Below are positions 1-10,429 of a stretch of DNA of 40,030 bases, piece by piece. Under the pieces are notes generated by a model. That model did not search any database and was not told where the DNA came from. It saw only the letters and a program-made list of their open reading frames with translations. The position numbers and the translations under genes are program-made. The DNA is from Candidatus Giovannonibacteria bacterium RIFCSPLOWO2_12_FULL_44_15 (lineage in GTDB: Bacteria > Patescibacteriota > Minisyncoccia > JACPKW01 > UBA11713), in NCBI GenBank assembly GCA_001778905.1, contig MFIQ01000002.1, positions 1 through 40,030 of the forward strand. Direction: 5' to 3'. Position 1 is the stretch's first letter. The number at the start of each line of letters is the position of its first letter.

Positions 1-269
1 ATACCCGCAACGTCTTTTAGTAACTCTACGTCGGCCTCCAGCTTTTGTATGCGCCGTCTATGATCAACAAAAATTGCGCTATCCATGCGGGCTACGCGCT
101 TTTCAATTTTATCCAAACGCTCATTCGCTTCATTTAAGTGCTTATCTACTATATTAAATTGTTCATCAACCTCCTTAAACCCAGCTGCCATATCCTTCTT
201 AGAAGCTGTTTCATCGAAGCCTTTTTTCATCATCCGCGCCAAGTCATCTAATGTAGTTTTTTTAGCCAT
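1..269 (-). CDS. Small coiled-coil hypothetical protein (3' end runs off the window)
   Basis: Not in the ORF track. Read manually from ATG at 269: MAKKTTLDDLARMMKKGFDETASKKDMAAGFKEVDEQFNIVDKHLNEANERLDKIEKRVARMDSAIFVDHRRRIQKLEADVELLKDVAG..., open to position 1. Heptad pattern; TTGACA-N16-TAGACT promoter-like sequence just upstream. Confidence 0.8.
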   Translation of the reverse strand, partial: MAKKTTLDDLARMMKKGFDETASKKDMAAGFKEVDEQFNIVDKHLNEANERLDKIEKRVARMDSAIFVDHRRRIQKLEADVELLKDVAG

Positions 270-320
270 ATAACTCAAGTCTATATCTAAAAATTTTAGT
301 GTCAATGTATTTCATCTATA

Positions 321-340
321 CCCAAATTATGCCACAGAAA
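321..340. repeat. 20-bp module-boundary repeat, copy 1 (CCCAAATTATGCCACAGAAA)
   Basis: Exact copies at 321-340, 3829-3848 and 6055-6074, all intergenic and in the same orientation. Confidence 0.9.
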
Positions 341-368
341 TCCCTTGAGGATAAGGGATAAATTTTCA

Positions 369-1148
369 TTACCCAGCTAACTGATCCCAGAAAAGCCTCA
401 ATTTTGGATCATATTGATTTTTCGTCGAAACAGGGATAACGAAATCGTTATCCCATTTTTGATATTCACCAAAGAAAATTTTTCCAAACAAATCTTCATA
501 GTGCTTCATTTTATCCTCAAGAGAGTTGCCCTTAGAATATGCATCAAAAATCGAGAGAAATCCCGGATCATTTTCCTCTAAATATTTTACTGCCGCTTTT
601 TCTCCGCGCCACGAAATATCCCTGAAAGAAAAATAAGCGCTAATAAGTTCACTGACGCTATAAAGCAATCGCATTTCGAGAGCTTTTTTGTATAGATCAT
701 CCCCCGAGTAATATCGGAGGTTGGCAATATAATTATAATTAACCTTAACCCAAAAATCTTTTTTTTCTGAATCGGGAACTTTTTGGATTGGTGAATTTTT
801 GCTAAGTTTGTCCTTAAGCGCTGACAATAAATTTTCTGGGTCATATTCTATTTTCCCCTTAACCAACCATTCTAAAAACATTCCATCGAAATTGTTGCAA
901 AATACTTCCTGTTTATTTTTTACATGGTTCAGGAAATCAATATCAAAGAAAAAAATATCGGAAAAACGCTTTTCAATTGTCGTGTATACTAATTTAATTC
1001 CTTCGTTATTTTTATCTATAACAACAACTAAATCTATATCGCTTGATTGAGTAAGTCTTGAGGCGGTTGTGCCAGTTGTAAAAATTCCCTTCACCCGCGG
1101 CGAGGATTTCATTTTCTCGATTAAATCTGTTAGCGAAGAGTATTTCAT
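369..1148 (-). CDS. Pol-beta superfamily nucleotidyltransferase-domain protein
   Basis: GTTASRLTQSSDIDLVVV matches the hG[S/T]x9-13DhD NTase signature. Helical C-terminal domain. Substrate unknown. Confidence 0.75.
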   Translation of the reverse strand: MKYSSLTDLIEKMKSSPRVKGIFTTGTTASRLTQSSDIDLVVVIDKNNEGIKLVYTTIEKRFSDIFFFDIDFLNHVKNKQEVFCNNFDGMFLEWLVKGKIEYDPENLLSALKDKLSKNSPIQKVPDSEKKDFWVKVNYNYIANLRYYSGDDLYKKALEMRLLYSVSELISAYFSFRDISWRGEKAAVKYLEENDPGFLSIFDAYSKGNSLEDKMKHYEDLFGKIFFGEYQKWDNDFVIPVSTKNQYDPKLRLFWDQLAG

Positions 1149-1197
1149 AAAGAATCCGACACTTACAGGTTATCAATTATTTGGTCTATACTCAATA

Positions 1198-1227
1198 GAA
1201 ACCCCCGCGCTCCGAAGAACGCAGGGG
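1198..1227 (-). terminator. Probable intrinsic terminator after MTAP
   Basis: Minus strand CCCCTGCGTTC-TTCG-GAGCGCGGGG followed by GTTTC (short U tract). Confidence 0.55.
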
Positions 1228-1241
1228 CCGATTCACAGACT

Positions 1242-2111
1242 TTAACCATTCGCCAGTTTGTAATACTCTGCGAGTCTGTCCGTTGCGCAGTTACATTTCG
1301 TAATCTCTTCTGCAGCCACAGAAAGTTTTTCGAGTAACGTTACGGTTGCCGAAGTATTGCGGCGGAATATAGCAAGCACAATTTCTATAGATTCAGCTTG
1401 CATTGAGATCGCACTAGGAATGCCGACATCATAATCAGTTACCGTAGCAACTGCTCCGTAACAAAGTCCTAGCTCGTGCGCGAAGTAGCATTCAGGATAT
1501 TGCGTCATATTCACAACATCCCCGCCCCAAAGCGCGAACATCTTGCTCTCGGCAATGGTTGAGAACCTAGGTCCCTGGATAACAATCACAGTACCAGTGG
1601 CTCTGTACGATACACCCATGGTCTTAAGTTCACGATTCACGATGCCCTGCATCTGCTCGCAGTAGGGCTGCGCCATCGGCAAATGAACAAGTTGGTGATC
1701 AACCTCAAATGTGTCGTCGCGACCCCACGTGAAATTGATGAACTGATTGGGAACTACAAACGTTCCCGGTTCAATCTCTTTTCGGAGACTACTTACTACA
1801 CACGTCCCAATCACATGCCGCACACCAAGCGACTTCATCGCCGCGAGATTTGCCTTGTACGGAACTTTGTGCGGAGGAATCGCATGTTTAGAGCCGTGTC
1901 TTGGCAGAAAAGCAATACGCTCCCCGCAAAGTTCGCCAACGCTGATCGGTCCAGACGGTTTCCCGTAGAGGGTTTCCGTTTCAACAATTTCAGAGATTGT
2001 CAGTCCCGGCAGTACATAGAGGCCCGATCCGCCGATAACTCCAATAAGTGATCTGTCCTTGGCGGAGGGATTTTGCTTGTTCTTCAGGTAAGAGATTCCA
2101 GATGAGCTCAT
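1242..2111 (-). CDS. mtnP: S-methyl-5'-thioadenosine phosphorylase (MTAP, PNP family 2)
   Basis: Motifs IGVIGGSGLY, FLPRHG..H.IPPHKVPYKAN, IQGPRFSTIAES, VVNMTQYPE, VTDYD. AAGGAG SD upstream of ATG 2111. Confidence 0.9.
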   Translation of the reverse strand: MSSSGISYLKNKQNPSAKDRSLIGVIGGSGLYVLPGLTISEIVETETLYGKPSGPISVGELCGERIAFLPRHGSKHAIPPHKVPYKANLAAMKSLGVRHVIGTCVVSSLRKEIEPGTFVVPNQFINFTWGRDDTFEVDHQLVHLPMAQPYCEQMQGIVNRELKTMGVSYRATGTVIVIQGPRFSTIAESKMFALWGGDVVNMTQYPECYFAHELGLCYGAVATVTDYDVGIPSAISMQAESIEIVLAIFRRNTSATVTLLEKLSVAAEEITKCNCATDRLAEYYKLANG

Positions 2112-3450
2112 ACATTATCTCCTTTGTGAATATGGCGTTATTTGCGTCTCGCGCAATGGCATCACCGCAAAGTTCCGAAGAACTCCACGCGCAACCTCCA
2201 CCATCGAGTACACAGTTATTGTCATCCGCCATGACTGAATCGTTAAATAAAGGCAGACGATATCTCCACTTTTTCACCGTTTCTGTTTGTCCAATCCTGA
2301 ACGTGCTAGGCAACTCTCTGACATCCCCCTGATCAAAACGAAGAAATGGGCAGTTGCTCACTTGACCGTCTGCTTGGATAACCAGTTGGTTGCCGTAGCA
2401 AGTGCAATCAACTGAAAACGGTAGGCCGTTTCGGAGAGCAATTAGTTTTTTTTCAAGTTGGTACTCATAACACGGCTCGTTTTCAGCCATACTAGTCAAT
2501 CCAGACAGAACACCGTGAGCGGCTACTCGGCAATAATCTTCTGCGCTCTTCCCCGCAAGTTCGCGAATGAGAGCTTCGCCCTTCATCAAGTTGAAGCCAA
2601 ACTTGGCCACACCCAATTTCCACAGGAAGTCTGGGTATTCTGCTAATCTATAGACGTTCGCCGGAGTGATAGTTACAGAAGCCATAACGCGCACGCCATT
2701 ATCAGCAAGCTGTTTGATAGCACGCTCGATGACAGCAAAAGTTGTATCGCCATTACTTGTGATGCGAAAACGATCGTTATGTTCTTCCGGGCCATCCACG
2801 CCAATTGCAACCGTTACTCCGTAGTAAGCAAATAACTTTGACAAACGCTCATCTACTAAGAAGCCGTTAGTGCAGAGCATAAGTTCAAGCTTTTCAGGGA
2901 GTCGCCCCGCACTTTTCTCCCCATCAACATACGGCAAAAGCTGTTCAAAGATTTCCCTATTCAATAGAGGCTCTCCTCCATAGAAAATCAAGAAGTACGG
3001 ATTGTTGTCTTGCGAGCACTCCTCGATATGCTTTTGCCAAAGGGCGATGCCGGCAACAGCATCCTCGAATGACATTAGACGTTCGCCGTATCGTCTGGCG
3101 AGTGCGGGGATCGGACAGTATGTGCACTTAAAATTGCAGCCTTGCGCCATCATTAGATACAAAATGGTCGGCCGGTTGAATATCTGTAAAATTTGCCTGC
3201 GTGAAGATTCAAGTGCCTTACAGTCGATATCGGAATTATCAATCAGCAATCTTCTGTCCATAAGTTCTCGAACAATGCCGTTATTCAATCTCGTTCGCGC
3301 GCTTATTTCAGAGACAGTATCACACCAACTCTTGCTAGATAAATATATGGGTTCCGGATGTAATTGATGAATAACGGCAACCAGATCATCTCTCTCGAGT
3401 ATGCGCAAGAAACGAGATATAAACACCGGGTTTATAGCAGAATTTTCCAC
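1990..3450 (-). CDS. Radical SAM protein with degenerate SPASM/twitch domain, putative peptide maturase
   Basis: CNFKCTYC motif, FYGGEPLLN, TNG and VDGPEEHNDRFR. C-terminal CTC..QLVIQADGQVSNCPF and GGGC. Start re-assigned to GTG 3450 behind AAGGAGGAG; the track start at 3573 crosses a terminator. Confidence 0.9.
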   Translation of the reverse strand: MENSAINPVFISRFLRILERDDLVAVIHQLHPEPIYLSSKSWCDTVSEISARTRLNNGIVRELMDRRLLIDNSDIDCKALESSRRQILQIFNRPTILYLMMAQGCNFKCTYCPIPALARRYGERLMSFEDAVAGIALWQKHIEECSQDNNPYFLIFYGGEPLLNREIFEQLLPYVDGEKSAGRLPEKLELMLCTNGFLVDERLSKLFAYYGVTVAIGVDGPEEHNDRFRITSNGDTTFAVIERAIKQLADNGVRVMASVTITPANVYRLAEYPDFLWKLGVAKFGFNLMKGEALIRELAGKSAEDYCRVAAHGVLSGLTSMAENEPCYEYQLEKKLIALRNGLPFSVDCTCYGNQLVIQADGQVSNCPFLRFDQGDVRELPSTFRIGQTETVKKWRYRLPLFNDSVMADDNNCVLDGGGCAWSSSELCGDAIARDANNAIFTKEIMYELIWNLLPEEQAKSLRQGQITYWSYRRIGPLCTAGTDNL

Positions 3451-3467
3451 TATCTCCTCCTTTTCTG

Positions 3468-3504
3468 AAAAAAGCCCCTGCGTCTCCGTTGGAGGGCAGG
3501 GGCT
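3468..3504 (-). terminator. Intrinsic terminator/attenuator between the small Cys peptide gene and the radical SAM gene
   Basis: Minus strand AGCCCCTGC-CCTCCAACGGAGAC-GCAGGGGCT followed by a T run. Confidence 0.75.
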
Positions 3505-3533
3505 AATGTGCTGATCCTTTGCGGAGTGTTTGG

Positions 3534-3716
3534 TTACGCTTCCAAATTGACTTTGGTAAGCGCCTCCCGCCACTGCTCTTTGGTTAGTGTTACTTTGCCG
3601 CCGTCGTCATCGGTTATTACAATTTTGTCGTGATGAATTTCCACGACAGGGCAACATCCCTGGCCACCACAGAGCTGGACGCGCGTAATTGCTCCGCCTT
3701 GATCGATCTTGGTCAT
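3534..3716 (-). CDS. 60-aa Cys-motif small protein, candidate RiPP precursor or substrate
   Basis: MTKIDQGGAITRVQLCGGQGCCPVVEIHHDKIVITDDDGGKVTLTKEQWREALTKVNLEA. Strong SD (AAGGAGGTG) before ATG 3716. First gene of the radical SAM operon. Confidence 0.75.
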   Translation of the reverse strand: MTKIDQGGAITRVQLCGGQGCCPVVEIHHDKIVITDDDGGKVTLTKEQWREALTKVNLEA

Positions 3717-3828
3717 CTTTCTCACCTCCTTTCTTTTTTAAACTTCAATAGAATACTATCATACATAATACATAAACTTACCCAATACTATATTAAAAAA
3801 TGTATATAAAATATTGTCAAATTTACCA

Positions 3829-3848
3829 CCCAAATTATGCCACAGAAA
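3829..3848. repeat. 20-bp module-boundary repeat, copy 2
   Basis: Exact match to 321-340 and 6055-6074. Confidence 0.9.
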
Positions 3849-3860
3849 CCGAGAAAAATT

Positions 3861-3886
3861 AAAGAGGAGCTCATGGGCTCCTCTTT
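3861..3886. terminator. Hairpin terminator after the phospholipase C-like gene
   Basis: AAAGAGGAGC-TCATGG-GCTCCTCTTT inverted repeat 20 nt past the stop. Confidence 0.65.
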
Positions 3887-3905
3887 ATGGTTTGGTTTTT
3901 GTAAA

Positions 3906-5519
3906 TTATTCTGGTACCTCCTTTGGGAAAATCTCCATTGAAACAGCGTCTAATTCCAAGACAAACAATATTGGACTCGGAATAACATTAAATAAACTCA
4001 CAAAAATCAGCTCCAATTCCTCAATTGTAATGTCCGAACAGCTGGGAACAAAATCTTTGATGCTATCTAGTCTCATTTCAACGCTTCTCTGCGACTCGAT
4101 AATTGAATAGCCATGGATTCCGTTTACGGGCGCGGTCAAAATTGCGTCCTGTTGCGTTCCTACTCCGCATTCCGGCCTCCCCCTTATCCCCCACCCAGTC
4201 GTAATATTCCACCCGTCAACTAAAGTTGAATCTGTTCTTGGGTATACATTCAAGGCAAGGCCATTTTTCACGCCAGCAAGAGATATGGGCTTCGCAAAAT
4301 AAAAATCACCAAATTCTTCAGGGGGCGTAGATATTATAATGTTATCCCCGGGATTTTTCGGATCGCCTTGGATGAAACATAAATAAATCAGCGCACCTAC
4401 TTGAGGAATTTCACAATCAGAAGCATTAACCTCCATCCAGAACAGGCGATACAATCCCGCGACGGCTTTGATAGCATGCGGGACTAGCGCTTCGGCAGCT
4501 TTATTAAGACCGATTTTGTTATCCTTACCGTTCAACGACTCTATTTGTCGCGGTTGGCTTACAATATTTTCGGCTGCTACCTCACCTTCCCAAAGATTAG
4601 GAACAAAAATACTTTGCGTCCCGTCTTTCCGCGCATATAAGCCGTTATCGCCGCTTCCCATCTCTGGATCGAAAATATCCCCATCGCTTGCGAAATACTG
4701 AGTCTTTTGAGCCACATAGTAGAAAAGCTTGCCAATCGGGGTTACCTCTTTAAGCACCACCGACCAGTCAAAATCTGGAGGAATATTTGGAAGGAAGTCT
4801 GGATTGTATTCTTTGCTTCCCAATTCTTTTCCCTTTCCTAGAATATACTTCGAGATGTTTTTCCGTTTCCCCATGAACTGCTCAAAAGCATCATCTTCAG
4901 CCGAAGGTCCTTTCCCGGAACAGTGTTTAATAATGAAACTTCTTAGCAACCCTGTGTGGATGTCATTATGAACATGCGCCGGAACTGCCAAGTCTGTCAG
5001 TAAATGGGCCACCTTGCCAAGAACATAATAACTCTGTTCAAAATCAGTCAGCGCGTAAAGAAATTTGGCAGTATCGTACAATTCTTTAGCCCTTTCGAAA
5101 GCGCCTCCATACGACAGGCAACTGCCAAAAGAAACGAGACTGCTGCGAAAGGTAGCGCCGACATCAAGCTCAAAATGTTCGTCAAACAAATCTGGATTCC
5201 AGAAATGCTCGGAAACAGACAGAGTTTCGATGTTGTTTTTTCGATCTGTTATTTTCGTCGCGTCTTCTTCGGCACTCCCCACAATAATGTCGTCCCCTTC
5301 ATCATAATCAGCGCACGAATTTTTAAAAATACACTTCGCAGATACATTTTCGTAACGACCTATGTTCTCTTTTGAAGCATAATCCTTCAGCTCTTGCGGG
5401 ACATCTTCCCAAACATCAATCGCCTCGCGCGCGATATGCTGATGGGTCACAATCTCGTGACCATAGGCAGTTGAATATGATAAGATGAGAATCAGAACAC
5501 TCAATCCAAATCCAAACAT
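3906..5519 (-). CDS. Secreted Zn-dependent phospholipase C / P1 nuclease-like protein with additional C-terminal domain
   Basis: Signal peptide, then HEIVTHQHIAREA, EHFWNPD, LGKVAHLLTDLAVPAHVHND and DDAFEQF (Zn-ligand pattern of the PLC/P1 fold). AGGAGG SD. Confidence 0.7.
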   Translation of the reverse strand: MFGFGLSVLILILSYSTAYGHEIVTHQHIAREAIDVWEDVPQELKDYASKENIGRYENVSAKCIFKNSCADYDEGDDIIVGSAEEDATKITDRKNNIETLSVSEHFWNPDLFDEHFELDVGATFRSSLVSFGSCLSYGGAFERAKELYDTAKFLYALTDFEQSYYVLGKVAHLLTDLAVPAHVHNDIHTGLLRSFIIKHCSGKGPSAEDDAFEQFMGKRKNISKYILGKGKELGSKEYNPDFLPNIPPDFDWSVVLKEVTPIGKLFYYVAQKTQYFASDGDIFDPEMGSGDNGLYARKDGTQSIFVPNLWEGEVAAENIVSQPRQIESLNGKDNKIGLNKAAEALVPHAIKAVAGLYRLFWMEVNASDCEIPQVGALIYLCFIQGDPKNPGDNIIISTPPEEFGDFYFAKPISLAGVKNGLALNVYPRTDSTLVDGWNITTGWGIRGRPECGVGTQQDAILTAPVNGIHGYSIIESQRSVEMRLDSIKDFVPSCSDITIEELELIFVSLFNVIPSPILFVLELDAVSMEIFPKEVPE

Positions 5520-5752
5520 AAATCCTCCTTATGAAAAGACGAATTGTTTCACTATTGGCTGCAATCATCATTGCATTAGGCTTGTTTTATCTTCTCCTTG
5601 ATTTAGCTCTTAAGTCTGGCGGTAATCCTTAATTAGTTTTTGAAGCAACTTATTTCCCCTAAAAATAATATATTTCTCACAAATTGTCCACAAAAACAAA
5701 CCGCCTCGGCTTCGATAGCGCGAGGCAGTGGTGGCATAAAATTAAGTCTACT

Positions 5753-6007
5753 TTAAATTTCGACTCCGAGCTTATCGCGGATGATTTTCTTTATACGATT
5801 GTGCTCGGCCTTCAGGGTTACGAATTCGAAAGTCTTTTCTAGTAGGGCTGGAAATTCATCCCGCGTCGGCACATTCTTCATCCGCTCTCCCAATCCGTCA
5901 ACTTTTTTTTCAATCCTAACAACATCGCCAGCTAAATCGTTTAAATCCTTCGCCTTAGCAATACCATTGAGTGCTTCTTTCAGATCTCGTTTTGTAATCG
6001 GATTCAT
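5753..6007 (-). CDS. Small coiled-coil hypothetical protein
   Basis: 84-aa ORF, heptad-rich, similar in character to the 1-269 protein (ends ...RIKKIIRDKLGVEI). Confidence 0.75.
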   Translation of the reverse strand: MNPITKRDLKEALNGIAKAKDLNDLAGDVVRIEKKVDGLGERMKNVPTRDEFPALLEKTFEFVTLKAEHNRIKKIIRDKLGVEI

Positions 6008-6054
6008 GTATTATATTTTACTGCGAGAGTAAAATCATCGCAATCCCCCACATC

Positions 6055-6074
6055 CCCAAATTATGCCACAGAAA
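6055..6074. repeat. 20-bp module-boundary repeat, copy 3
   Basis: Exact match to copies 1 and 2. ATAAGGG lies 10 nt further on, as in copy 1. Confidence 0.9.
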
Positions 6075-6119
6075 TAGGAGAAAAATAAGGGGAAAATAAA
6101 AAACACAGGGCGAACAAAG

Positions 6120-6725
6120 TTATTGCAAATCCTGAATTTTTTTCTTCAAGATCTCCGTTCCTGCTTCCCTGCTCGCGGCATCAAGATTAAAAACTTTTCC
6201 GAATGTTACCCTGATATATCCCCGTCTGGTTTTAATGTGAATGGGTAGGATGAGGACTTTCGCCTCGAGGGCAAGGGCCGAAGTCCCGTGATAGAAATAT
6301 CCAAGCTCGTCTCCGCGGATCAAAAATCCTTCCGGAAACATCAAAACTGTCCCTCCTTTTTCTAATATCCTCGTCGGAAATTTAATCGCTTTCTCTATCC
6401 CCTGCCCGCGCCCCGAAGGAAACCCTCCGGTCAATAAATAAAATAATTTTAAAATCCTTAATCTGGCGATTAGTCTCAGTACCTTCGACCGGAAATCAAA
6501 TTCCTCCGTGATATACCGCCCGGGCAAAATCGGCGAGAGCCACGGCATGGAAATAACAATAAGAAAACCGTCCAGTAGCGTTTTATGGTTTGAAACTATT
6601 ATCAGGGGTGCCCTGACACCCGTTAAATTCTCCCTGCCGCGCACTTCGATCTTATAGAAAATCCGTAAAATAATCCCGGCAATTGGCCAGATTAAAAAAT
6701 ACTGAATAAACCAATAAAAAATCAC
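6120..6725 (-). CDS. plsC: 1-acyl-sn-glycerol-3-phosphate acyltransferase (PlsC family)
   Basis: NHKTLLD (HX4D) and MFPEG motifs. Confidence 0.8.
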   Translation of the reverse strand: MIFYWFIQYFLIWPIAGIILRIFYKIEVRGRENLTGVRAPLIIVSNHKTLLDGFLIVISMPWLSPILPGRYITEEFDFRSKVLRLIARLRILKLFYLLTGGFPSGRGQGIEKAIKFPTRILEKGGTVLMFPEGFLIRGDELGYFYHGTSALALEAKVLILPIHIKTRRGYIRVTFGKVFNLDAASREAGTEILKKKIQDLQ

Positions 6726-6739
6726 CAGTTTATTATAGC

Positions 6740-6774
6740 AAAAAAGGCGTCGTCCTGTGAGACAACGCCTTTTT
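6740..6774. terminator. Bidirectional intrinsic terminator
   Basis: AAAAAAGGCGTCGTC-CTGTGA-GACAACGCCTTTTT. Confidence 0.75.
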
Positions 6775-6787
6775 GGTCATGATTTTA

Positions 6788-6880
6788 CTAACTTCTCTAC
6801 CCTTCGGACTATGCCTCAGGAATAGACTAATGATTCTTGGCATACCCGTCGGACAACGCCTCGGGGGTATGCAAAGTTAG
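6788..6880. other. Structured intergenic element, candidate ncRNA or cis-regulatory RNA
   Basis: Closing stem CTAACTT/AAGTTAG. Internal helices GCATACCC/GGGTATGC and TATGCC/GGCATA are mutually exclusive. No known family recognised. Confidence 0.35.
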
Positions 6881-6895
6881 CGCAAACGAACTATT

Positions 6896-7987
6896 TTATA
6901 GAGCTCGCAACGCCATCTCCGCGATCTTGTCGCCATGGAGATGCATATGTTTGAGATGACGCTTTCGGTGGTCCTCTTTGTCCATTACCGTAATGTCCAT
7001 TTCGCCACAAGCACATTCCCAGACATGCCGCAAAGTAAAGACTCGCTTGACAACATCCGGGGCATTGCCGATAGAAACCTCCTCCGTCGCGCCGGGCTTG
7101 TTTTTTGCAAGCTCCGCCTTAAATCGCTCGATACCTTTTTTCGAAGCCGCATCGTGCGACTCGAGCTGAGCACGTAGCATGGTGTTTTCTCGGAGCAAAA
7201 CAGTTATTCTCGGATGCTCAACTGTGCGATAAGCCCAAGAGATAGCCCAGAAAATAGTACACGCCACTATCGCGAGACCAAAGAGATAACCTTCGCTGCC
7301 TTCCAACCACGGATATGGCAACTCCGTTTGATAGTCAAGCGGGCGCGCTGCAGCGAGGACTCTATTCCAGATTTCGGCGTTACTTTTAACAGTGTCGCTA
7401 TATACCGCGACTACGCCGTTAACCACATCCCCGAATTCAGATGCGCGGCGCAACGCTTCATCTCTGACGCCCTTCAGACTGCTTATTGTCGCGGCCTGCT
7501 TCTCGAGCTTTGTCGAAGCGTTTTTTAACTTTGCCTGCAACACCCCGTTCTGCGTTTTGAACTCCGCTATTTGCTGGTCTCTGGCCAAAATTTCCTGATC
7601 TTTGGCCTGGACCGCGGCAACGACTTTTGCCTCGTTAGCCGCCACGATCTGCGCAACTGTCAAGTACGGAAAGAATACTGGCTCGCCCACCTGAATTTTC
7701 TTGGTCGCTTCCATGGCCGCGTCACCGGTCAATCCGGTGTGATTTTCGGCGACCATTTTTGTGCACTGCATATGGTCTTTGACTTTCTCAAACGGCAAAT
7801 TCCCGTCGATCTCAATCTGCTTGCAAGTCCCCCAGATGGTATTCCCGCGTTCCATGACGATCATAACGCCCGGGAGCACTCTGTCTTTGTAGGACTCGGG
7901 TTGAATGACTTCCTCCTCGGCTCGGGCGAACCCGAGCGTGATTAAGAAAAAAGCAACCGAAATAATCGAAATTGATGTTTTCTTCAC
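6896..7987 (-). CDS. Hypothetical membrane protein (signal peptide, coiled coil, TM helix, C-terminal Cys/His motif)
   Basis: N-terminal signal; coiled coil around aa 115-185; TM YLFGLAIVACTIFWAISWAY; WECACG...HRKRHLKHMH. Confidence 0.75.
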   Translation of the reverse strand: MKKTSISIISVAFFLITLGFARAEEEVIQPESYKDRVLPGVMIVMERGNTIWGTCKQIEIDGNLPFEKVKDHMQCTKMVAENHTGLTGDAAMEATKKIQVGEPVFFPYLTVAQIVAANEAKVVAAVQAKDQEILARDQQIAEFKTQNGVLQAKLKNASTKLEKQAATISSLKGVRDEALRRASEFGDVVNGVVAVYSDTVKSNAEIWNRVLAAARPLDYQTELPYPWLEGSEGYLFGLAIVACTIFWAISWAYRTVEHPRITVLLRENTMLRAQLESHDAASKKGIERFKAELAKNKPGATEEVSIGNAPDVVKRVFTLRHVWECACGEMDITVMDKEDHRKRHLKHMHLHGDKIAEMALRAL

Positions 7988-8120
7988 GTTTATTTCCCCT
8001 TTCTTCCCTAGTTTTCAAGGGTCAATATCTACCTTTATTTCCTTAATTAATTAGCATATTTAGCCATTTTTGGCAATAGGCCTTTATTTTTAGCCCAAAA
8101 TATAATAATGTAAAAGCTAA

Positions 8121-8193
8121 CCGCCCATAGCTCAGCTGGTAGAGCAGCTCCCTTTTAAGGAGAAGGTCGTAGGTTCGATCCCTACTGGGCGGA
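8121..8193 (+). tRNA. tRNA-Lys(TTT)
   Basis: Acceptor stem CCGCCCA/TGGGCGG, D arm GCTC/GAGC, anticodon loop CTTTTAA, T loop GGTTCGATCC. CCA not encoded. Confidence 0.95.
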
Positions 8194-8446
8194 CATTTTA
8201 GAAAAGCGCAAGCCAGAGGAAGCCGCCTCGCTTCGCTCGGCGGCCATTTCGTATTGGATTTTGGGGGCAAAAACGAATTGGCGGTTTCGTAAAATATGAT
8301 TCGCGCCGATGTTTTCCTCCGGGTTCTTTTACGGTTTTTATCGGTGTGGCTCCGCCGCTTTTCGGATTTTTTGCGGGGGGCTTTCATCGCCCCGAACTTG
8401 TCGAGGGGCAAAAACGGTTCGCACTATTTCAAGAATACTGGACATT
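8182..8446 (-). pseudogene. Possible scar of an element integrated at tRNA-Lys (recombinase C-terminal remnant)
   Basis: GGACATT direct repeat at 8191-8197 and 8440-8446. Startless frame IGANHILRNRQFVFAPKIQYEMAAERSEAASSGLRFSKMSAQ* runs antisense into the tRNA. The resemblance to serine recombinase tails is from recall only. Confidence 0.35.
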
Positions 8447-9496
8447 CTAGATCCCTTCCTTTTTGAGTTCTTCAATTATTTCTTTTGCTTTTTTGGAAAG
8501 ATGTTTCGGAGTTTTGACTGATATGCGGATTATAAGGTCTCCCCTTCTCGCGCCTTCGGCTCCCGGAACTCCGCGACCGCGGATTCGCAAGGATTCTCCG
8601 GAATCTATCCCTGCCGGAATTTTAACTTTAAGTATTCCGTCTAGCGCGTTTATCGTCCGCTCGCTTCCCAAAATAGCCTCTGTAATCGGGATTGCCAAAT
8701 CCATCACGAGATCTTCACCCTCGCGCGTAAACAGTGCGTGTTTCGATACATTAATACGGATATAAAGATCTCCGGCAACTCCCCCAGAAACAACTTCTCC
8801 CGATCCGGATATCTTAATTATCTCTCCGTCTCGTATGCCGGGGGGAACATTTACAACAATTTCTTCTCTTTTATGGACAACTCCCCCTCCTTTGCAAACT
8901 CCGCAAATCTCATCCGGAATTTTTCCGCGCCCGATGCATTTCCTGCATTCAACCACGCGCATGAAAGAACCCAAAAATGATTTCCCGGATTCGCGGACCG
9001 TGCCGGATCCATTACAAGACGTACACGTTTTGGTTTTTGAACCGGGCGCCACCCCGGAACCTTGGCAATTTGAACAATACGCTGCTTTAGTCAAAAGCAC
9101 TTTTCTTTGGACCCCGAAAATTGATTCTTCGAAATTTACGTCAACTTCAATTGAGATATCGCGCCCGCGCTTAACCCTAGTCCCTCGCCCGCCCATATTA
9201 AACAAGTCTTCAAAAATATCCCCGAAATCAAACCCGGACATATCGCCAAAATCAAAACCGGTCGCCCCATGTCCACCTCCGGCCTGATCCGAAAAAACCC
9301 TGCCATAGTGGTCGTATTCTGCGCGCTTTTTTTCGTCAGACAAAACTTGATAAGCTTCGTTGATTTCTTTAAAATCGTTTTCTTTGCCGCCTTTATCGGG
9401 GTGGTGCTTATGCGCCAATTTCCTAAACGCTTTTTTTATCTCGTCCTTGGACGCGTTTCTTTGGACTCCTAAAATCTCGTAATAATCTTTTGGCAT
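8447..9496 (-). CDS. dnaJ: Chaperone DnaJ
   Basis: J domain with HPD, G/F region, four CxxCxGxG repeats. Confidence 0.97.
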
Positions 9497-9499
9497 AAA

Positions 9500-10429
9500 T
9501 TAGTTGAACTCAACATATTCCTGCGGCATTGTTCGAGTAAAAATCTTAACAACCCCCGCGTATAGAAGTATTTTAAACGCAATCCAGCTAATTGCAACAC
9601 TTATCCAACCAAGCATGATAAAAAGCGTTCGGAAGGCTGCAAATACCGCCAACGCGAAAATTGCTGGCAAGTACTTTTTGTACGCTCCGAATCGAGCTTC
9701 GATAATGCCGATGCTCCCTTGATATAAAACATCTCCAATCCGCAAATTGCCTTCAATTTTTTCCGCTCCTAGATTTTTTGCGAGCTCTGCCCTGGCCTGC
9801 GCCAAAATTCCGCTTTTCTCCGCTTGGGACAATTTATCAAAAATGAAGGCATTTTCGCTTCGAATAACGGTGATTAACGCTTCGTCGACGGTTTTTGCCG
9901 GATCCGGAATATCAAATGGTAGGATTTTGCCTGCAAGCGGTATTTTGCCTGCTGCAGTAAGAACTTTCTCAAAAGCAGATTTTGGAATAATATCCTCAAA
10001 CTTTCGGATTCCATCCTCAGGATAGAAAAATCCTGCGAGAGAAAGTGCCATGATAGTTAGAAATGTCGGCAGCCCCTTACGCAATAGCTCGTCTACGGAA
10101 AAAGTCATTCGGGATTTAATTTCTTTTTTTATTCTCCCAGCCGGAATGAAACTTAGTATGGAGGATCCGAACATTATGCCTAACGCCAGATATTTATTTT
10201 CAAGAAAAAGAAGCGTCGGGGCAGCGCTTAAAAATATTGATAGGGCAGAGATGTTGTTGCCGAGAAGAATGAATGAGAGGCCTGTTATTCCAAAAAAGAA
10301 AACCAAGACTGCCGCGGAAAAAGGAGAGATCAACCCGAAAATCGGGTTCGTACCTCCCACGAGATACCAGAAATATCCTCCGCTCGCGATAATTAATCCC
10401 GAGAGTATTATTTTGGGCAAGAGTCTCAT
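9500..10429 (-). CDS. Hypothetical multi-pass membrane protein
   Basis: About 7 hydrophobic segments. Start overlaps the dnaK stop (TAATG). Confidence 0.8.
   Translation of the reverse strand: MRLLPKIILSGLIIASGGYFWYLVGGTNPIFGLISPFSAAVLVFFFGITGLSFILLGNNISALSIFLSAAPTLLFLENKYLALGIMFGSSILSFIPAGRIKKEIKSRMTFSVDELLRKGLPTFLTIMALSLAGFFYPEDGIRKFEDIIPKSAFEKVLTAAGKIPLAGKILPFDIPDPAKTVDEALITVIRSENAFIFDKLSQAEKSGILAQARAELAKNLGAEKIEGNLRIGDVLYQGSIGIIEARFGAYKKYLPAIFALAVFAAFRTLFIMLGWISVAISWIAFKILLYAGVVKIFTRTMPQEYVEFN

Follow-up and report, generated by a model that had tools for sequence, protein, structure and literature searches.

A 48-bp promoter-like repeat delimits variable gene cassettes in one chromosomal slot of Candidatus Giovannonibacteria

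This report concerns a cassette-like array at the start of contig C2 of a Candidatus Giovannonibacteria genome (G000; 745,416 bases, 32 contigs, 44% G+C), from a groundwater bacterium. The DNA analysed, called the window below, is the stretch C2:1-40030, 40,030 nt in length. In the array, accessory genes are bounded by co-oriented copies of a short repeat that was found to be part of a unit of about 48 bp with the features of a promoter. We consider it moderately probable that this unit is a portable terminator/promoter that expresses each cassette and also provides the homology for RecA-dependent shuffling of cassettes. A preliminary description of this DNA had proposed serial site-specific integration into an integron- or pdif-like accretion array, with a duplicated extended -10 promoter or operator as the alternative. 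Accretion array and promoter are halves of one answer, and the description of a cassette-like array delimited by a repeat, with no integrase nearby, has been borne out.

Exact copies of the 20-mer CCCAAATTATGCCACAGAAA lie at 321-340, 3829-3848 and 6055-6074 on the plus strand, all of them intergenic. Allowing up to three mismatches returned the same three sites in the window and no extra one. None of 100 dinucleotide shuffles of the window contained any match to the 20-mer, and 0 matches were expected by chance. At up to three mismatches, the 20-mer was absent from the remaining 31 contigs, and its 11-mers were restricted to the three sites bar one extra match at C2:12343. The exact repeat in three co-oriented intergenic copies is thus confirmed by mismatch search, shuffles and genome-wide count. 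It is real, local and far above chance, and is therefore neither a genome-wide promoter consensus nor an uptake sequence. The motif is not scattered over core genes, and modules vary at the repeat (see below), so the outcome named in the preliminary description as refuting its array did not arise. Since the genes of the locus are on the minus strand, the motif is to be read as TTTCTGTGGCATAATTTGGG. In other families of the class (L006-L010), weaker matches to the 20-mer had neither the extended unit nor a consistent context and were set aside as chance; a reversed-pattern control gave 2 matches in 41 genomes.

Stacking of all copies showed that the 20-mer is the core of a sharp-edged unit of about 48 bp, which on the minus strand reads TTTCCCCTTATTTTTCTCCGA, then TTTCTGTGGCATAATTTGGG, then TATAG(ATG). 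The weak similarity to the right of the 20-mer that had been reported earlier (ATAAGGG, GAGAAAAAT) is genuine and represents the upstream half of this longer unit. In an alignment of 16 unit copies from 5 genomes (alignment A1), the columns without variation are a T within CCCTT, a further two T's, and then TG, a single free base, NATAAT and TT. The 20-bp cores are identical across three species. Copies from other genera (G009 ...CTATGCCATAATTTGGG; G004 ...TTGTGGGATAATTTGGG) have altered neighbouring bases and keep TGnNATAAT, and this invariance is the signature of a predicted extended -10 promoter. As in sigma-70 extended -10 promoters, TG stands one base upstream of the hexamer, A2 and T6 are present, and the element is upstream of and co-oriented with genes. 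Conservation reaches about 25 bp upstream of the -10, through the block CCCCTTATTTTT, and includes three TTTC-type direct repeats. The substantial open reading frames (ORFs) of positions 1-9500 are all on the minus strand, and each unit copy follows the stop and terminator-like hairpin of the previous gene and precedes the next gene. No Rfam family reached its gathering score at the units; in the window and in two relatives (L011, L012) the matches at that score were tRNAs only. The units and the hairpins beside them are as follows.

314..363, minus strand: unit 1, consisting of the left-half variant TATCCCTTATCCTCAAGGGA, the core 20-mer and TATAGATG (profile E = 1.1e-13, alignment A1); it lies after the nucleotidyltransferase (NTase) gene and before the coiled-coil gene, and its variant left half forms a small hairpin at 340-359.
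3827..3868, minus strand: unit 2, with a diverged left half and the core 20-mer (profile E = 6.3e-11, alignment A1); it lies after the terminator of the 537-aa gene and before the peptide/radical-SAM module.
3860..3887, minus strand: terminator-like hairpin with a stem of 11-12 bp, downstream of the 537-aa gene, with a T-run that passes into unit 2.
5678..5696, minus strand: decayed unit between the 84-aa and 537-aa genes, equivalent in position to an intact unit at M14:1336.
5698..5712, minus strand: terminator-like hairpin with T-run, after the 84-aa gene and adjoining the decayed unit.
6051..6097, minus strand: unit 3, with the canonical left half TTTCCCCTTATTTTTCTCCTA and the core 20-mer (profile E = 7.9e-15, alignment A1); it is the first unit of the array and directly follows the PlsC-like gene.

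The decayed unit was missed by the unit profile at E<=0.1. It had first been recorded as a degenerate copy of the 20-mer, and can now be identified from metagenome contig M14, where an intact unit takes its place after the 84-aa gene. A partial inverted copy had also been recorded at 5731-5743. The 13-mer GTGGCATAAAATT does occur there on the plus strand, in the 3' region of the 84-aa cassette; only a 9-mer of it is common with the unit, that 9-mer has 5 matches genome-wide, and the stretch is not kept at the equivalent place in M14. This inverted copy is probably due to chance.

The unit occurs in one syntenic slot. On one side of the array is a PlsC-like gene, with GrpE, DnaK and DnaJ ahead of it; on the other is an operon composed of one variable gene and a seven-transmembrane (7TM) histidine-kinase gene, with AspRS and ScpA/B beyond the kinase gene. 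Co-oriented unit arrays occupy this slot in four of the seven genera of the small Candidatus Giovannonibacteria order, which comprises only the 10 genomes compared here (G000-G009). A search with the unit profile (R1) gave 3 units in G000 (plus one beyond the contig end and one decayed), 4 in G001, 7 in G002, 3 in G009, 1-2 in G004 (the second copy at E<=0.1) and 1 in G008, and none in G003, G005, G006 or G007 at E<=0.001. The two arrays of the same genus are each confined to one locus, with the 4 copies of G001 in about 9 kb and the 7 of G002 in about 7.4 kb. Across all species representatives other than the window's own genome, the unit was found in only two records, both Candidatus Giovannonibacteria; in viral contigs, two search patterns returned no unit.

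Orthologues of PlsC flank the slot in G002, G004, G005, G006, G007 and G009, and the last unit always precedes the operon that ends in the kinase gene. In G007 (100% complete, 5 contigs) the slot is empty, with PlsC, an SDH-like gene and the kinase in succession. Both G006 and G007 have at the slot position a single related promoter, TTTTCCGC TATAAT TAAARG ATG; the repeated unit is best seen as a proliferated derivative of the promoter of the kinase operon. Genome G003, of the same genus (91%-complete assembly), has no unit and also no PlsC and kinase orthologues; it is not counted as an empty site because the locus is missing from the assembly.

Extension of the contig to the left of position 1, as the preliminary description had suggested, revealed a fourth intact unit 49 nt beyond the end in contigs from four runs. 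The sequence that comes next in gene direction is ATGAAAAAACACGATTATTTTAAAAAA (MKKHDYFKK), with which an aminotransferase begins. Contig C24 starts inside an aminotransferase gene, and the kinase follows. The order in G000 is therefore PlsC, unit, 84-aa gene, decayed unit, 537-aa gene, unit, the peptide, radical SAM, PNP and NTase genes, unit, coiled-coil gene, unit, and the aminotransferase-kinase operon. The G000 assembly broke at the repeat.

The gene content between units was shown to vary strongly. Comparison of related genomes at the repeat found different or re-ordered modules between the units, besides the empty slot of G007. The inter-unit genes of three congeners differ almost entirely. 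Their cassettes include a Gp49/RelE-like and XRE toxin-antitoxin pair, a DUF4258-like and DUF2283 pair, two radical SAM enzymes with a mutual identity of only 26%, an LD-carboxypeptidase, NDK, Nudix, a PPDK-like enzyme, a low-molecular-weight phosphatase, a second tryptophanyl-tRNA synthetase (TrpRS2), a chorismate mutase-methyltransferase and TrpBA.

When metagenomes were scanned for the unit, 32 loci turned up on 20 contigs; the loci were merged into 22 segments. Eight of these (M05, M08, M09, M11, M18, M19, M20, M22) were dropped before the comparison of cassettes as probable unrelated promoters, since they match the pattern without the CCCC...CCGA block and TTTGGG. In the 14 kept segments every unit is co-oriented, and the units also share one orientation in all 10 metagenome segments with two or more of them. 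Segment M14 carries the coiled-coil gene, a toxin-antitoxin pair (90% to G002), the 84-aa gene (80% to G000), a prephenate dehydrogenase gene and a radical SAM gene (84% to G001), with a unit between each and the next; every piece has its match in a different genome. The 84-aa gene, 80% identical in nucleotides to its M14 copy, thus stands there behind a toxin-antitoxin cassette and not behind PlsC. In M06, a homologue of the G000 537-aa gene heads a different order and is joined via two other cassettes to the SDH-like gene. In M21 a Nudix cassette and its unit are followed by an aminotransferase, and in G002 by the SDH-like gene; the two sequences are 97% identical up to ...TTTGGGTA and unrelated beyond. 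Homology between genomes breaks at the unit edges in several independent cassette combinations. Furthermore, G002 and M14 both have a rare CTCCAA variant of the left half, in each case together with the toxin-antitoxin cassette upstream of it. A cassette therefore seems to be made up of leader, gene or genes, terminator and unit, and to be exchanged within the core or immediately behind it.

The cassettes have also been exchanged recently. The NTase gene, the unit following it and a 143-nt leader after unit 2 have 73-80% nucleotide identity between G000 and G009, two genomes of different genera. At identical residues, third codon positions agree between these genomes at 131/198 positions in the NTase gene and at 254/544 in three core genes (p = 3e-6). 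For the coiled-coil gene, the same comparison between G000 and G002 gave 63/78 against 190/343 in core genes (p = 3e-5); this cassette has 90% nucleotide identity to G002, and its synonymous-site identity is 0.81 as compared with 0.55-0.56 in core genes. The units are near-identical between species although synonymous sites of core genes are only about 0.55 identical. Synonymous identity of cassettes above that of the core therefore indicates exchange between species and genera after their divergence.

Several further observations on the slot can be added. The N-terminal part of the kinase gene has a synonymous identity of 0.82 between G001 and G002, against 0.62 in the adjacent SDH-like gene, which hints at recombination tracts reaching into the anchor operon. 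A divergently oriented module of TrpRS2 and chorismate mutase-methyltransferase is found across genera, at 2653-4828 in G006 (reverse complement of L049) and at 6491-8716 in G001; its TrpRS2 is 82.6% identical, compared with about 50% for the neighbouring kinase. The slot has an aromatic amino-acid theme, seen in this module, TrpBA, prephenate dehydrogenase and the SDH-like gene. Between PlsC and trpB of G002, a T-box leader-like element (L012 4335-4521) matches the full-length model with E = 4.7e-11 at 53.8 bits, under the Rfam gathering score of 93. A stretch 79% identical to it lies in G001 (3336-3485 in the reverse complement of L011), after a unit and ahead of the PPDK-like gene, and G006 has a structured-looking leader at the same place.

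The promoter features of the unit were compared with the rest of the genome. In G000, a -10-like box ends exactly 6 nt ahead of the start codon in 59 of 710 long ORFs, 20 of the 59 with TG, and a Shine-Dalgarno-like word precedes the longest-ORF start in only 101 of the 710. The frequency of the box at 6 nt, and of TG with it, indicates that leaderless extended -10 transcription is the local norm. The extended -10 alternative of the preliminary description is accordingly right for the core, given the invariant TG-n-NATAAT and this genome-wide usage. Ordinary G000 promoters share only TATAAT, a partial TG and a faint T-rich -35; the 48 conserved bases of the unit are therefore exceptional and need further explanation. 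The TTGACA boxes that had been reported to follow two of the copies are present, but on the minus strand, downstream of the units and within cassette leaders. A generic consensus scan of 1-7000 found 14 promoter-like sites against 13.4 expected, with no enrichment; the scan demands a -35, and the unit core is not among its sites.

In roughly half of 26 non-redundant units (by eye), an ATG follows TTTGGG at 2-8 nt. Several of these open a long ORF, among them the SDH-like gene, the LD-carboxypeptidase, the DUF4258-like toxin and a methyltransferase. On the other side, a strong hairpin with a T-tract directly abuts at least 10 of the 26 units (by eye), the T-tract entering the T-rich 5' end of the unit. 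By its sequence, the element is therefore a composite terminator/promoter.

From these data we infer RecA-dependent homologous recombination as the mechanism of cassette exchange. The unit would descend from the promoter of the operon ending in the 7TM histidine kinase, and copies of it would have come to stand before every accessory cassette of the variable slot found across the family. Its T-rich block TTTCCCCTTATTTTTCTCCGA may often double as the U-tract of the terminator hairpin of the upstream gene. The predicted extended -10 promoter TGTGGCATAAT would come next, then a short start region, TTTGGG TATAG, often with ATG directly after. Such a unit would transcribe whatever follows it, so that every newly acquired module would be expressed and insulated from its neighbours. 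Because the unit is the only sequence common to otherwise unrelated cassettes, it would also be the homology for their insertion, deletion and re-ordering. Recombination would involve either imported DNA of relatives or two unit copies on the same chromosome, and would give rise to circles of a cassette plus a unit, as has been proposed for the PeSL repeats of phages (PMC2839356; PMC4122927). A dedicated integrase would not be needed. RecA, ComEC and DprA are present in the genome. The ComEC (Competence family) match, G000:C1:10286-11044, lies in a 738-aa frame with one in-frame TGA; this could reflect two genes, a sequencing error or a broken gene, and matters for the transformation route.

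Several points weigh against this explanation. The spacing from CATAAT to ATG is 10 nt, compared with the 6 nt typical of the genome, and a box at 10 nt was found in only 6 of 710 ORFs. Of the seven G002 units, two point towards genes on the minus strand (DUF5698, Nudix), and what follows each of these units is no more than a short relic ORF. Both the promoter activity and the transcription start we infer from the sequence. With 48 bp, of which about 20 are perfectly identical, the unit is short for RecA-dependent exchange, and its extra conservation could instead be the binding site of a regulator. A 231-aa gene and its unit are common to G001 and G002, yet the upstream edge of the shared segment is free of units. 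The TrpRS2 module, common to G006 and the G001 type at 82.6% protein identity, has no detectable unit in G006, and the slot can therefore change without units. No excised circle or simple deletion allele was seen among assembled contigs, the form in which all 20 runs with the locus are kept, a result uninformative either way as these are contigs and not reads.

A different account holds that the unit is a true att-like site served by a recombinase in trans, either a lone housekeeping Xer-type enzyme or one of an unrecognised family, the promoter-like core being incidental or co-opted. The precise conservation of the 20-bp core, identical even between species, and the sharp unit edges speak for it. 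Strict co-orientation at a single locus fits serial integration, and where cassette-linked sequences part, the break lies within the core or immediately to its right. It is also favoured by the tyrosine recombinases: PF00589 has 0 or 1 match in each of the 10 family genomes, and 9 of the 10 have one. Against it, this match is never at the locus; the sole one in G000 is on contig C12, outside the window. Moreover, the number of tyrosine recombinases is unrelated to the arrays: G007 has one but lacks an array, and in G009, with its array of 3 units, there is no match. No serine recombinase was found in G000, and no recombinase or transposase family was detected among the 54 slot and flanking proteins scanned, nor was a recombinase found in any array.

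The structure of the unit also argues against an att-like site. Folding of the unit as single-stranded DNA (five copies on the coding strand, and unit 3 on the opposite strand as well) gave z-scores of -0.40 to +0.83, with 61-167 of 200 shuffles folding at least as well. An attC-like hairpin was rejected on these grounds, the unit being conserved in sequence and not in structure. In alignment A1 and the metagenome units, no dyad symmetry and no inverted second arm were found, and nothing is conserved to the right of TTTGGG(TATAG). The layout of Xer/dif sites, roughly 28 bp with two inverted 11-bp arms on either side of a 6-8-bp spacer, is absent as well, the conserved part being the left arm CTGTGGCATAA alone. 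The right-hand junction varies: it falls after ATAATTT, GGG, GGGTA or TATAG, or else lies 20-30 nt beyond, where remnants of an aminotransferase N-terminus are present. This variability speaks against cleavage at one fixed position and agrees with de novo formation of cassettes by illegitimate events followed by shuffling through homology. No change of sign in GC skew was seen across the 40-kb window, a test that is partial because the G000 array sits at the contig end, and the genes on both sides of the slot are co-oriented. The sole perfect 11-6-11 palindrome in a simple scan, a dif candidate at C12:25344, is not conserved in 5 relatives at up to three mismatches, and the palindrome scan identified no credible dif site in G000. 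The integron- or pdif-type mechanism first proposed is thus not supported, in view of the missing hairpin and second arm, the co-orientation, the single unlinked recombinase at most and the variable junctions; we consider an att-like site unlikely.

We regard as equally unlikely the proposal that the unit is regulatory only. It would then combine a promoter with an operator, to which a dedicated regulator would bind so as to control the slot and the kinase operon jointly. The arrays would have arisen by ordinary duplication and illegitimate insertion, with the unit passive in recombination and its conservation reflecting protein binding. The conservation of about 25 bp upstream of the -10, with its direct repeats, is in favour of such an operator, as are the position of the last unit, which always drives the operon ending in the kinase gene, and the homologous single promoter in G006 and G007. 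The slot of G006, moreover, varies without a repeated unit. All six response-regulator matches of G000, however, are in frames of 126-151 aa, none of them near the locus; these are too short for a DNA-binding output domain, which weakens the idea of a response-regulator operator. A purely regulatory role also leaves unexplained why homology switches exactly at the unit edges in several independent combinations, and why cassettes and units are younger than the core genome.

Marginally less probable again is an integrase-gene-free 'promoter integron', in which the promoter doubles as a recombination site and site-specific exchange occurs at or next to the transcription start. Its catalyst would be the lone housekeeping Xer-type recombinase or another enzyme, and captured genes would be placed at +1. 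If true, it would let minimal-genome symbionts of the Candidate Phyla Radiation (CPR) sample a communal pool of metabolic add-ons. The least probable account, and a very unlikely one, is that the repeats are leftovers of old tandem duplications of a promoter and an aminotransferase 5' end whose gene content was later replaced, with no ongoing mobility: relics of the aminotransferase N-terminus (MKKYDYFK-like) do stand behind units (G002 9880 and 13656, M06 2019, and G000 unit 1), but cassette order differs among closely related populations, cassettes with unsaturated synonymous sites are common across genera, and the units are far more alike than core synonymous sites.

The portable terminator/promoter unit can be compared with several known systems. 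The closest are the PeSLs (promoter-early stem-loops), regulatory repeats of T4-type phages by which variable ORFs in hyperplastic regions are shuffled (Arbiol et al. 2010, PMC2839356; Comeau et al. 2014, PMC4122927). As described there (PMC2839356), PeSLs resemble the unit in combining a terminator stem-loop with a strong promoter, in lying intergenically before non-essential variable ORFs, and in bounding indels and replacements between relatives. Homologous recombination between the repeats has been proposed for them, with a circle of a cassette plus one repeat as intermediate, and a moved gene brings its own promoter and terminator (PMC2839356). PeSLs are a looser family of about 100-bp motifs in five sub-classes, dispersed in about 50 copies over a phage genome, with -35/-10 boxes plus a Shine-Dalgarno sequence. 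The unit, in contrast, is one tight sequence of about 48 bp in 1-7 copies at one locus of a CPR bacterial chromosome, with an extended -10 and a short or no leader, and its conservation spans several genera. For PeSLs, activity of promoter and terminator as well as mini-circles are reported as demonstrated, whereas promoter and terminator of the unit are predicted from sequence. Its flanks are DnaK, DnaJ and PlsC on one side and the histidine kinase, AspRS and ScpAB on the other. The unit would work like a PeSL but is not a member of that phage family.

The array also resembles integrons and CALINs, the clusters of attC sites that lack an integrase and by definition do not require an adjacent IntI. 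Common to them are co-oriented cassettes, mostly of one gene or a small operon and unrelated in function, at a single chromosomal site, content that differs between close relatives, toxin-antitoxin cassettes, and repeats that are highly similar within an array. Integron cassettes are as a rule promoterless and are read from Pc. The array differs in having no IntI, no attC-like bottom-strand hairpin, and promoter features in each repeat. With IMEX (integrative mobile elements exploiting Xer), located at dif in the replication terminus, and the pdif modules of Acinetobacter plasmids it shares modules without a recombinase of their own, a short conserved bounding site, and the availability of a single housekeeping tyrosine recombinase. 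The modules of pdif type are bounded by sites of alternating orientation; the unit has one arm-like stretch without an inverted partner, all copies are co-oriented, and there is no terminus-like skew switch. In the minimal mobile elements of Neisseria and in 'replacement' flexible genomic islands, alternative cassettes between conserved genes are exchanged by transformation and homologous recombination. The array likewise has alternative cassettes between conserved flanks and no dedicated mobility genes. Minimal mobile elements find their homology in the flanking core genes, whereas here a short regulatory repeat within the slot subdivides it into exchangeable cassettes. In the literature searched, no element of this kind was described for CPR bacteria or Giovannonibacteria. 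An integron-like cassette array built from a PeSL-like regulatory repeat, in one conserved slot of a minimal cellular genome, appears to be new, with phage PeSLs as the closest documented case.

The genes of the array and its upstream anchor in the window are the following.

3..305, minus strand: coiled-coil protein gene, a cassette; probable ATG at 269, reaching the contig end.
369..3725, minus strand: cassette of Cys-rich peptide, radical SAM, PNP_UDP_1 and NTase genes.
369-1148, minus strand: NTase (Pfam).
1242-2111, minus strand: PNP_UDP_1 phosphorylase (Pfam).
1990-3573, minus strand: radical SAM enzyme (Pfam); true start probably lower.
3534-3716/3725, minus strand: 60-aa Cys-rich peptide, heading the 369..3725 cassette.
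3906..5519, minus strand: 537-aa protein, a cassette; no Pfam family.
5753..6007, minus strand: 84-aa protein, a cassette; own -35/-10-like pair at 6043..6015, ending 7 nt before the ATG.
6120..6725, minus strand: PlsC-like acyltransferase (Pfam), the conserved upstream anchor of the variable slot.
8447-9496, minus strand: DnaJ, farther upstream of the PlsC-like gene.

The cassette at 369-3725 (minus strand) resembles a small peptide-modification module, with a Cys-rich peptide, a hairpin, and radical SAM, PNP_UDP_1 and NTase genes. The PNP_UDP_1 phosphorylase could clear the 5'-deoxyadenosine by-product of the radical SAM enzyme. Compared with G009, the first three genes of this cassette are inserted between the shared leader and the shared NTase gene. 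A tRNA-Lys(ttt) lies just after dnaJ, at 8121-8194 (plus strand) in the window and at 782-855 (plus strand) in L012; it is co-oriented with dnaJ in G002 and opposite to it in G000, which suggests a local inversion. An ORF of 122 aa at 8043-8411 (minus strand) overlaps this tRNA and is probably no gene.

The genomes of CPR bacteria (Patescibacteria) are very small, and little is understood of the ways in which accessory functions enter and leave them. The locus suggests an enzyme-free route, in which one unit marks the slot, guarantees expression of what is inserted, and gives the homology for swaps among species and even genera. The functions carried by the cassettes include aromatic amino-acid, nucleotide-metabolism and radical-SAM/peptide modules as well as toxin-antitoxin pairs. 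In practice the unit is an assembly hazard, at which the G000 contig breaks, and it would also provide a handle of 48 bp for fishing the flexible gene pool of uncultured bacteria from metagenomes. The logic of such an array had earlier been documented only in T4-type phages, and a cellular case would broaden the role of regulatory repeats as platforms for cassettes that are free of mobile elements.

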